From assembly GCA_030693145.1 (NCBI GenBank), contig JAUYBI010000045.1, positions 4,591-68,590 on the forward strand: a DNA stretch of 64,000 nucleotides, given 5' to 3'. The translations under genes and the position numbers were made by a program. The notes beneath the pieces were generated by a model. That model ran no database searches, was not told the DNA's origin, and worked only from the letters and a program-made list of their open reading frames with translations. Shown here one piece after another: positions 58,976-60,037 of the stretch (position 1 is the first letter of the stretch; each line of letters begins with the position of its first letter). Source of the stretch: Candidatus Omnitrophota bacterium. GTDB taxonomy: Bacteria; Omnitrophota; Gorgyraeia; Gygaellales; Profunditerraquicolaceae.

Positions 58976-60037
58976 ATGAAGATTTTGTTGAGTGGTAATG
59001 AAGCAATTGCCCAGGGGGCAATTCAGGCAGGTTGTAGTTTTTATGCCGGGTACCCGATTACTCCGCAAAATGAAATTATTGCTTATATGGCAAAACACAT
59101 GCCCCAGAAAGGTGTTTTTATTCAGGCAGAGAGCGAGTTGGCGGCGATTAATATGGTTTACGGGGCCTCTGCTGCCGGAGTAAGGGCAATGACTTCCTCC
59201 TCAAGCCCGGGAATAAGCTTAAAGCAGGAAGGGATATCTTATATTGCCGGAGCGCGGCTTCCGGCGGTAATTGTCAATATTATGCGCGGCGGGCCGGGTT
59301 TGGGAAATATTGCTCCTGCGCAATCGGATTATTTTCAAGCTACGCGCGGCGGAGGACATGGAGACTATCACTTGATCGTCTTGGCTCCGGCTTGCGTGCA
59401 AGAAGCATACGAGCTTACGCAAACCGGTTTTGATTTAGCGGATAAATATCGTACCCCGGTTATGATTTTGGGTGATGGTATATTGGGCCAAATGATGGAG
59501 CCGGTAGTAATCAGAAGACAGAAGACAGAAGACAGAAGACAGAAGCAGCCAATAAAACCGTGGGCGCTTACGGGTTGCAAAGGAAGAAAGCCCAATATCG
59601 TTAAATCATTTTTTCTGCGGGAAGGAGCCCTAGAGGAAGCCAATCTTAAGCTGCAAAGAAAATATGAAATTATCAGGAAGAAAGAAGAACGTTACGAAAA
59701 CTTATTTTCTTCCGATGCAAAAATCATCCTGGTCGCCTATGGTACAATGGCGCGGATAGCAAAAAGCGCAATGCTTGAGCTTAGAAAAGAAGGATATAAG
59801 ATTGGATTAATCCGGCCGATTTCTCTGTGGCCTTTTCCTGTAAATGCGTTCCGTCATCCGTCATCCGTCATCCGTCATCCGTCATTTCTGGTAATAGAGA
59901 TGTCTTACGGCCAGATGCTTGAGGATGTCCGGCTGGCAGTTGGCGGCAGACAGCAAGTAGAGTTTTTTGGCCGTTCAGGAGGCGGGGTACCTACTGAAAG
60001 CCAGATTATGAACAAAGTTAAAAAAATATTATCATGA
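58976..60037 (+). CDS. 2-oxoacid:ferredoxin oxidoreductase alpha subunit
   Basis: The 353-aa protein has the motifs GYPITPQNEI and GDGILGQMMEPV. It contains two in-frame heptanucleotide repeat tracts. Confidence 0.85.
   Translation: MKILLSGNEAIAQGAIQAGCSFYAGYPITPQNEIIAYMAKHMPQKGVFIQAESELAAINMVYGASAAGVRAMTSSSSPGISLKQEGISYIAGARLPAVIVNIMRGGPGLGNIAPAQSDYFQATRGGGHGDYHLIVLAPACVQEAYELTQTGFDLADKYRTPVMILGDGILGQMMEPVVIRRQKTEDRRQKQPIKPWALTGCKGRKPNIVKSFFLREGALEEANLKLQRKYEIIRKKEERYENLFSSDAKIILVAYGTMARIAKSAMLELRKEGYKIGLIRPISLWPFPVNAFRHPSSVIRHPSFLVIEMSYGQMLEDVRLAVGGRQQVEFFGRSGGGVPTESQIMNKVKKILS

Follow-up and report, generated by a model that had tools for sequence, protein, structure and literature searches.

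Heptanucleotides are described as the commonest long simple sequence repeats (SSRs) in many bacterial genomes; 7 nucleotides (nt) has been proposed as the length of DNA that contacts the polymerase, and coding DNA normally avoids units whose length is not divisible by three (Mrazek 2007, as summarised in PMC4679880 and PMC4692102). Arrays of TAACTGA do lie in the interior of open reading frames (ORFs) of Beggiatoaceae and cyanobacteria, mostly in those of hypothetical proteins (PMC4679880). Heptamer tracts can also be switches: that of neuO counts 3 to 53 units among 64 genomes, 66% of them out of frame (PMC13001214), and the heptamer switches of Haemophilus influenzae hmw count 13 to 38 units (PMC2651432). 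Here we consider a 64,000-nt stretch from a Candidatus Omnitrophota bacterium (GenBank assembly GCA_030693145.1, contig JAUYBI010000045.1, positions 4,591 to 68,590), hereafter the window, in which two perfect heptanucleotide arrays lie in frame in the middle of the gene for the alpha subunit of a 2-oxoacid:ferredoxin oxidoreductase, and a third, related array lies near the start of an ORF coupled to trkH. These are probably near-neutral arrays that fill permissive slots under selection for frame, length and polarity, and are stable passengers rather than switches.

All coordinates are positions in the window. The gene, the ORF and their arrays are as follows.

58976–60037, plus strand: alpha subunit (domains I and II) of a four-subunit 2-oxoacid:ferredoxin oxidoreductase; intact ORF of 353 amino acids (aa)
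59512–59545, plus strand: site-B array, encoding IRRQKTEDRRQKQ directly after MMEPV at residues 179–190, most of the linker between domains I and II
59850–59885, plus strand: site-C array, encoding FRHPSSVIRHPSF directly after WPFP and replacing the segment between the WPFP and LVIEMS strands of domain II
41732–42223, plus strand: trkH-coupled ORF of 163 aa, its start overlapping the trkH stop (ATGA), with a signal-peptide-like N-terminus and a C-terminal hydrophobic anchor
41760–41800, plus strand: third array, encoding ICLLSSVLCLLSSVC, the hydrophobic core of that signal-peptide-like N-terminus

Tandem Repeats Finder (TRF) reports the site-B array as period 7 with 4.9 copies and 100% matches (unit CAGAAGA, a rotation of AGAAGAC) and the site-C array as period 7 with 5.1 copies and 100% matches (unit TCCGTCA, a rotation of CCGTCAT). 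Direct reading gives (AGAAGAC)4 followed by AGAAGCA at site B and (CCGTCAT)5 at site C, both in frame. Program and raw sequence agree on the two alpha-subunit tracts singled out by the sequence-only reading, an earlier model-made annotation of the same DNA: both exist, both are perfect, and both keep the frame of the gene, where they encode VIRRQKTEDRRQKQ and FRHPSSVIRHPSF. The third array is scored both as period 21 (2.0 copies at 100%) and as period 7 (5.6 copies at 81%): it is a perfect 21-nt duplication, (TCTGCCT TCTGTCC TCTGTCC)x2, followed beyond the TRF end by TCTGTCT, to about 41806. Its units TCTGCCT, TCTGTCC and TCTGTCT stand 0 to 1 mismatch from the reverse complement of AGAAGAC, which bears out the proposed reverse-complement kinship of the third tract with the first.

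An exact search of the window for at least three copies turns up arrays of period 7 twice and arrays of periods 5, 6 or 8–12 not at all, and lag-7 identity scans return precisely three regions, the three tracts. At the strict threshold, scans at lags 5, 6 and 8–11 find no region in the window, and shuffled sequences likewise give none; the relaxed threshold gives about 0.1 region per shuffle. The three tracts are thus far beyond chance. Rfam, searched across the window at gathering thresholds, has nothing at the tracts and matches only tRNAs and one 6S RNA. The window does come from a metagenome-assembled genome (MAG), and short repeats can mis-assemble; an assembly or sequencing artefact nevertheless deserves almost no credence, the same arrays being present at the same positions, all in frame, in independent NCBI, JGI and Logan assemblies (loci L081–L084, L085, L088, L089 and L090).

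The identity of the host gene is clear at the level of family. Its product matches Pfam POR_N (1.3e-54) and PFOR_II (3.1e-19), reaches 530.9 bits with the NCBIfam model NF005507 (VorB) against a cut-off of 399, with residues 2–352 aligned to 4–349 of the 352 model positions, and has a counterpart of 100% identity among NCBI proteins, from a Candidatus Omnitrophota MAG. It has the domain pair, the score above the curated cut-off and the operon with delta, beta and gamma subunits that mark the VorB subfamily. The predicted product is the alpha subunit of a 2-oxoacid:ferredoxin oxidoreductase, of the VorB subfamily by the NCBIfam model; the earlier label korA was right as to enzyme family, and the name in the database is VorB.

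A unit that is not a multiple of three, repeated perfectly inside a coding sequence, as in both ORF 58976..60037 and ORF 41732..42223, would cause a frameshift on slippage. The sequence-only reading had drawn the usual conclusion, that these are slipped-strand contingency loci; on that view the 7-nt tracts would slip fast, throw the alpha subunit out of frame and toggle the enzyme off and on within a population. In-frame heptanucleotide switches of which neuO is an example do exist, and the copying of units within arrays and the 21-nt step variation of the third ORF, both described below, show slippage-type events over evolutionary time. The homologues point firmly the other way. They comprise DNA from 15 close relatives, fetched singly, and 160 more homologous loci from among the matches listed in scans of genome and metagenome contigs, where the closest match stands at 76–79% identity; made non-redundant, the set counts 172 loci. 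Neither a stop nor a frame break interrupts sites B and C in any of the 172. Wherever the site-C array is present it counts five units, in carriers whose nucleotide identity spans 78–93%; the array is identical and perfect in L085, L089 and L090, and the variants in L081, L086, L091 and L092 preserve the 7-nt register. The allele P0002 occurs on seven contigs, and the four that were read, independent assemblies, are identical at both tracts; within 90% clusters there are no variants of +/-7 aa at site B or site C.

Copy-number variation that includes OFF alleles, the hallmark of phase variation, is absent from the assembled loci, and so is the usual setting of a long tract (typically at least 8–10 units) at the 5' end of a surface, host-interaction or restriction gene: here there are just five units, in mid-gene, in a thiamine pyrophosphate (TPP)-dependent oxidoreductase subunit of core metabolism, as against the far more variable, 5' tract of neuO, OFF in most genomes, and the longer ones of hmw. 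With all 172 loci in frame, site C constant at five units and the P0002 contigs identical, the contingency explanation is very improbable. In L091 and L092, moreover, the loop is encoded by repeats that have decayed, and the assembled loci show no polymorphism of length, both of which tell against the claim as first put. To say that such heptamers had not been met inside ORFs at all would be too strong, given the TAACTGA arrays cited above, though these do not lie in a core enzyme. The expectation of lineage specificity fared better: among the homologues compared, the tracts are limited to Omnitrophota and a few Planctomycetota, and those below 62% identity have no 7-nt signal at sites B and C except for three, two of which are Planctomycetota.

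The arrays do not enlarge the protein by much. They begin at codons 179 (site B) and 292 (site C) of 353. In the closest solved structure, 1yd7, the alignment with the query runs to residue 180 and resumes at 227, and site C aligns with DFELIERIAE--RVDK, just ahead of a conserved strand; an AlphaFold2 model built from a 31-sequence alignment has a mean pLDDT of 57, with residues 166–227 below 50, and is too poor for mapping exposure. Compared with array-free close relatives, the net gain is 4 aa (+12 nt) at site B and 3 aa (+9 nt) at site C. The site-B linker has a mode of 15 aa across the 172 loci, single-array alleles measuring 16–19 aa, and the 15 aa of site-C array alleles is one of the two commonest lengths there. 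A simple 35-nt insertion is ruled out by net changes of only +12 and +9 nt. The tracts had been described as insertions or loop replacements after MMEPV and WPFP; these are indeed variable segments, and the part of the description that falls is simple insertion, the 352-position profile being matched end to end. The arrays constitute the linker at site B and the post-WPFP segment at site C, at about normal length, and are not added loops.

What fills these segments is strikingly free in sequence. Over 32 loci, site B holds more than 20 different units at near-constant length, among them AAAAATC, TATCGCA, ACAAGTC, GACGGAA, CAGCTAT, AAATCCC and AGCACCA, as well as CGCAGGA in a Phycisphaerae genome and TCAAAAC in a Sedimentisphaerales genome. 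On the sense strand site-B arrays are 44% A and 13% T, and the peptides they encode have a mean hydropathy of -1.7, whereas in arrays outside site B A roughly equals T. This bias of composition, taken together with the diversity of units, argues that selection acts on frame, length and polarity only, and on no particular peptide.

The alpha-subunit gene is one place among many in which heptamers accumulate. A tandem-repeat census was made over 2.13 Mb (the window plus 175 loci) centred on one operon, with Omnitrophota contributing about 0.5 Mb. Period 7 accounts for 113 of the 170 tandem arrays; perfect arrays number 37.6 per Mb in Omnitrophota loci vs 4.5 per Mb in other phyla, and perfect arrays of periods 5, 6 and 8–11 are absent from the Omnitrophota loci and nearly so elsewhere. 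With head-to-tail 7-nt units in at least three copies and an over-representation of period 7, the arrays share these two features with long SSRs and with the short tandemly repeated repetitive (STRR) sequences. The alpha-subunit gene holds 48 of 118 period-7 arrays (32 at residues 177–194, 10 at 292–304 and 6 at the 3' end), mostly of about 4–5 copies (range 3.6–5.4). Among closer homologues, at least 66% identical, about half have an array in the domain I–II linker or the post-WPFP loop, and in loci of that identity array density is 650–775 per Mb in the gene vs 40–64 per Mb in the flanks. Outside the alpha-subunit gene, 16 of 65 arrays are intergenic, 22 lie at ORF edges and 27 lie inside stop-to-stop ORFs, many of them at a relative position of 0.1 or less. 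Array lengths top out at about 34–36 nt in coding and non-coding DNA alike.

The same syntenic spacers hold different units in different lineages. Units differ at most sites, and some recur within or between genomes: CTATGAG twice in L102 and once in L092, TGTGTAA in L121 and L092, AAATCCC in L110, L014 and L109, and members of the AGAAGAC family twice in the window, these counts covering the loci collected around the operon. Across the lineages compared, then, the aligned loci have shown arrays that are fixed in position and near-fixed in length while the unit differs. Alleles that lack a TRF array also carry a trace of the period: at 62% identity or more, lag-7 identity is 0.38 at site B vs about 0.27, and 0.36 at site C, and more distant homologues and control regions have no such excess. 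This residual signal in array-free alleles suggests slots that have long been array-bearing; they appear to have gone through decay and renewal.

A second in-frame slot of the same kind is present in relatives, in the inter-domain linker of DXS, an enzyme of transketolase-like fold (L010 9373–9406, L118 9242–9268 and L123). The L010 array there encodes PSTEHRAPSTE. The window's own DXS gene (56913–58778) has a linker at residues ~478–490 that is without an array.

Comparison of alleles shows that variant units have been copied in register while array length stayed the same. At site C, L081 reads CGTCATC CGTCAAT CGTCAAT CGTCATC, L086 alternates these two units, and L093 has another perfect heptamer, TCGTCCA, at the same length; at site B, L085 has AGAAGAC followed by (GGAATAC)3, L094 has GGAAGRC units, and L091 has AGAAATC and AGAAGAC in alternation. 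The same two-base change in several units points to conversion or slippage within the array and not to independent point mutation, and it indicates that only the length-preserving outcomes of such events would survive.

Alleles are also mosaic. L088 is 80% identical to the window overall and identical over about 85 nt spanning site B, without a site-C array; L089 and L090 are 78–80% identical overall and 93–97% identical over about 170–200 nt around site C, and differ at site B. The arrays of L081, overall the closest relative, are less perfect than the ones in these more distant sequences. L091 and L092 are about 95% identical in the flanks and have site-B linkers that are wholly unrelated. 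From these patterns we infer that linker alleles may be shuffled by recombination anchored in the highly conserved flanks.

The explanation that we regard as likely joins these strands. Heptanucleotide simple-sequence arrays of the long SSR or STRR kind would be the dominant tandem repeat of this Omnitrophota lineage, and the slots would be nearly unconstrained sequence: a linker between domains, a surface segment, a signal peptide, the ends of genes and the spacers between cistrons. Arrays would arise and homogenise through slipped-strand or template-switch events in the 7-nt register; selection would purge products that break the frame, change length strongly or make the linker hydrophobic; and homologous recombination in conserved flanks would then reshuffle the linker alleles.

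Several points weigh against this account. The enrichment in the alpha-subunit gene compares the gene only with its own 10-kb flanks, the loci having been collected around it, and the evidence on length comes from assemblies, so that rare length variants within a population may occur. Surface exposure of sites B and C is deduced from the alignment to 1yd7, the AlphaFold model being poor. Slippage in the 7-nt register is itself an inferred mechanism: a single 7-nt step causes a frameshift, and homogenisation at constant length would need conversion-like or +/-21-nt events, neither of which is directly observed in the gene. Perfect arrays shared across ~20% divergence could reflect selection on the nucleotide sequence rather than recombination, and the abrupt change of linker between L091 and L092 is more easily understood as cassette exchange or de novo generation than as gradual turnover. 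Finally, the 34–36 nt ceiling does not follow from this account, and could indicate a dedicated generating process.

Some of these points would be natural if about 35 nt of heptamers were delivered at a time, whether by a small non-autonomous mobile element or by an enzyme, a polymerase or reverse transcriptase that synthesises repeats. Such a process would be analogous to the in-frame Rickettsia palindromic elements discussed below. The sharp ceiling in coding and non-coding DNA, the cassette-like replacement of a linker between the near-identical flanks of L091 and L092, and the recurrence of units at distant sites or in different genomes (CTATGAG, TGTGTAA, AAATCCC and the AGAAGAC family) would all follow, and a separate 21-nt GC palindrome is present or absent between the near-identical alleles P0005 and P0244. 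We find such delivery improbable all the same, given that units differ at almost every site, unlike those of a dispersed element family, that there are no target-site duplications or terminal features, and that the net change is just +3 or +4 aa and not 35 nt. The stepwise variants AGAAGAC, GGAAGAC and GGAATAC fit evolution in place, and the residual lag-7 signal of array-less alleles fits old arrays in decay.

The palindrome just mentioned, CCTGCCTGCCGGCCAGGCAGG, is GC-rich and encodes PACRPGR or PACPAGR. It stands in frame after AYMAKHM (site A of the alpha subunit) in several relatives, for example at ~10120–10140 of L088, and its presence or absence gives P0005 355 aa and P0244 362 aa. P0051 carries it at a fourth site, and in L109 it lies within the heptamer array of the DXS linker; a search of the window did not find it.

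The third tract shows what happens where length is less constrained. The ORF 41732..42223 has no Pfam or NCBIfam match, and NCBI labels its homologues 'DNA-binding protein'. These homologues carry two or three 7-aa periods and differ at the N-terminus in 7-aa steps. Where length is free, as in this signal peptide, copy number is thus shown to shift in 21-nt steps, that is, by three units or 7 aa. In the orthologue L176 the ORF begins ATGAGAGG(CCGAAGA)4.6 TAAAAA (TCTGTTT TCTGCCT)4 TCTGTCT, an inverted pair with a folding energy of -39.1 kcal/mol (z -4.7). Its purine-rich arm codes for RRPKTEDRRPK, the charged n-region, a peptide that almost matches the one at site B of the oxidoreductase, and its pyrimidine-rich arm encodes the hydrophobic core of the signal peptide. 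Of these two arms the window retains just the pyrimidine one as a clear array, and folding there does not reach significance (z -1.28). The N-termini of P0122, P0151 and related homologues consist instead of 8-aa periods (KNLRTEKL KNLRT, then FFSFSVFS FFSSSVLL), which imply, in the closest relative's genome, an inverted pair of arrays of 8-nt or 24-nt period and not heptamers; the array at this slot would thus have been replaced between genomes whose vorB genes are ~93% identical.

Inverted pairs are a general feature of neighbouring arrays. All 15 of the 15 array pairs that lie no more than 120 nt apart are inverted complements, vs 10% expected for random pairs, and their folds can be strong: -49.8 kcal/mol (z -8.3) in L003 and z -4.3 in L120. 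Site B itself takes hairpin form in relatives only (L010, L092 and L089), as 65-nt array pairs within the ORF; in coding sequence the L010 hairpin reaches -35.1 kcal/mol (z -5.6) and that of L092 -34.0 kcal/mol (z -8.6), the arms of the latter remaining complementary through G:U pairs. A comparable pair stands in L088 where a GH39 gene encodes its N-terminus (z -2.85). Pairs and single arrays also lie at the junctions of the oxidoreductase operon, whose other members in the window are as follows.

58771–58974, plus strand: delta (ferredoxin) subunit, Pfam Fer4 families; abuts the alpha gene without a spacer in the window
60034–60762, plus strand: beta subunit, Pfam TPP_enzyme_C
60759–61295, plus strand: gamma subunit, Pfam POR

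The delta/alpha junction is an array slot in relatives, with arrays just 5' of the alpha gene in L085, L088, L016, L001, L111 and L096, and the alpha/beta and beta/gamma junctions hold heptamer arrays or inverted array pairs in L120, L121, L118, L102, L174, L020 and L128; the window's own alpha/beta and beta/gamma junctions are without arrays. One could see the arrays as halves or remnants of an RNA hairpin element resembling the repetitive extragenic palindromic (REP) sequences, serving mRNA stabilisation, attenuation or the pacing of translation between subunits or domains, with the in-frame copies tolerated or co-opted. The inversion of every near pair, the strong folds of L003, L120, L010 and L092, and the match of the slots to the junctions delta/alpha, domain I/II, alpha/beta and beta/gamma speak for an element of this kind. 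The window speaks against it: its alpha-gene arrays are single and have no partner arm, the RNA of the site-B array is unstructured (minimum free energy -0.4 kcal/mol, z +1.07), as is that of the site-C array (z +1.64), and the third tract with its upstream arm is not significantly structured. Pairing between the two alpha-gene arrays of the window, or of either with nearby sequence, was considered and rejected, the sequences not being complementary and the fold no better than that of shuffled sequence. Because the alpha-gene arrays of the window are single and less structured than shuffles, a function as RNA hairpin cannot apply to them directly; many alleles also lack any array, and unit sequence is not conserved. 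Overall, we think a hairpin element unlikely.

A broader formulation is possible, though we hold it only tentatively: that Omnitrophota and some Planctomycetota harbour an undescribed class of small repeat, ~35-nt arrays (4.5–5 units) of an arbitrary heptamer, often paired into hairpins, occupying fixed slots at operon junctions and, in frame, in the linkers between domains of essential enzymes, with turnover of the unit, and generated or maintained by a dedicated process in the 7-nt register. If so, the arrays would be raw material, the purine-rich arm supplying hydrophilic linkers and the n-region and the pyrimidine-rich arm the hydrophobic core. A literature search found no description of heptamer arrays in Omnitrophota. 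Core-enzyme slots fixed in position and length with varied units, strict hairpin pairing, the 34–36 nt ceiling and signal peptides built from two array arms all seem to be undescribed.

Other repeats and RNAs of the window can be set down briefly. At 38201–38318, in intergenic DNA just 5' of ORF 38317..38679, a GC-rich 60-nt unit that contains palindromes is perfectly duplicated in tandem; the repeat folds at -68.4 kcal/mol (z -3.5) and resembles a hairpin repeat of REP or terminator type. At 32218–32314, between ORFs 31371..32237 and 32335..32844, a 50-nt unit is repeated 1.9 times (87% matches) with GC-rich hairpins ACACCCCGCGC...GCGCGGGTGT (z -3.4). A perfect 42-nt (14-codon) tandem duplication at 55370–55450 lies near the 3' end of a gene upstream of those for exonuclease VII, which synteny with L081 alone assigns to the GH39 family; its unit equals six heptamers in length and is not 7-nt periodic. 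At 63047–63084, in ORF 62930..63142, an in-frame 12-nt repeat AAGAAAGAAACC (3.2 copies) encodes KKETKKETKKES; the protein has 70 aa and a signal sequence like that of lipoproteins (..FLASGC..). The 6S RNA gene (45300–45460, 64.3 bits) and the five tRNA genes (8457–8528, 18093–18167, 35279–35556) are ordinary and unrelated to the tracts.

The locus bears on several wider matters. When a gene contains a repeat with a unit length not divisible by three, the usual interpretation is a phase-variation switch, and this case shows that the signature can mislead: selection can hold such tracts at one in-frame length over the long term while the unit keeps changing. Relatives tolerate 65-nt hairpins inside an essential ORF, and the arrays suggest a simple route by which repeat DNA may supply linkers and signal peptides. 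The collected loci form a data set for the old question of why 7-nt units dominate bacterial long SSRs and what limits their length. There is a warning for annotation as well, namely that 7-aa periodic segments in Omnitrophota proteins derive from a DNA repeat and are not structural motifs.

Periodic peptides of this sort are not confined to the phylum. A search with artificial periodic peptides (RRQKTED, RHPSSVI and CLLSSVF repeats) returned mostly short hypothetical ORFs of unrelated bacteria (Nostoc, Plesiomonas, E. coli, Planctomycetes), with little bearing on Omnitrophota. There the heptamers of the window form longer arrays that are translated, either in short ORFs that have been annotated or as C-terminal tails. 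Examples are P0246 (Nostoc sphaeroides), P0349 (E. coli), P0353 (Planctomycetes) and P0346, with RHPSSVI eight times in a Nostoc ORF, LLSSVFC four times in E. coli, and RRQKTED five to six times in the tail of a YdhG-family protein.

The arrays can be set beside several known systems. Rickettsia palindromic elements (RPE) are reportedly selfish repeats that stand in frame in essential genes, as described by Ogata and colleagues in 2000. The arrays share with them the tolerance of repetitive DNA in frame in housekeeping proteins at surface-exposed permissive positions; they differ from such elements, which are 100–150 bp long, form one dispersed family and add a peptide, in being ~35 nt long, in having many units, in replacing a linker and, in the window, in not being palindromic, so that the window's arrays show neither palindromy, nor membership of one dispersed family, nor an added peptide segment. 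With REP sequences and bacterial interspersed mosaic elements (BIMEs) they share inverted pairs at operon junctions that fold into stable hairpins; unlike in those systems, the arms consist of tandem heptamers, their sequence is not conserved, and no associated transposase is known.

As in neuO of E. coli K1, where the unit is AAGACTC, a 7-nt repeat is translated within a coding sequence and only the in-frame state yields full-length protein; the neuO tract, however, varies widely and belongs to the 5' end of a surface-modification gene carried by a phage, whereas here none of the 172 loci is out of frame and five units stand in mid-gene. Elhai is said to have found small dispersed repeats within cyanobacterial heptamer arrays. 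The arrays also resemble the long SSRs (those of Mrazek, the cyanobacterial STRR sequences, TAACTGA of Beggiatoaceae and GGGNATC of Xanthomonas and Nostoc), which likewise have few 7-nt units per array and an over-representation of period 7. There too array size is preferred, at four units according to Rehm et al. compared with 4.5–5 here, and strains differ by whole units (PMC4679880, PMC4692102). Arrays of those systems are mainly intergenic or at gene edges; most of those here that lie outside the alpha-subunit gene are in spacers, at gene edges or near N-termini. Unlike those long SSRs, the arrays described here vary in unit by slot and by lineage while position and length are conserved, lie in frame in the middle of core enzymes (the alpha subunit, and DXS in relatives), and, where they are neighbours, form inverted pairs.

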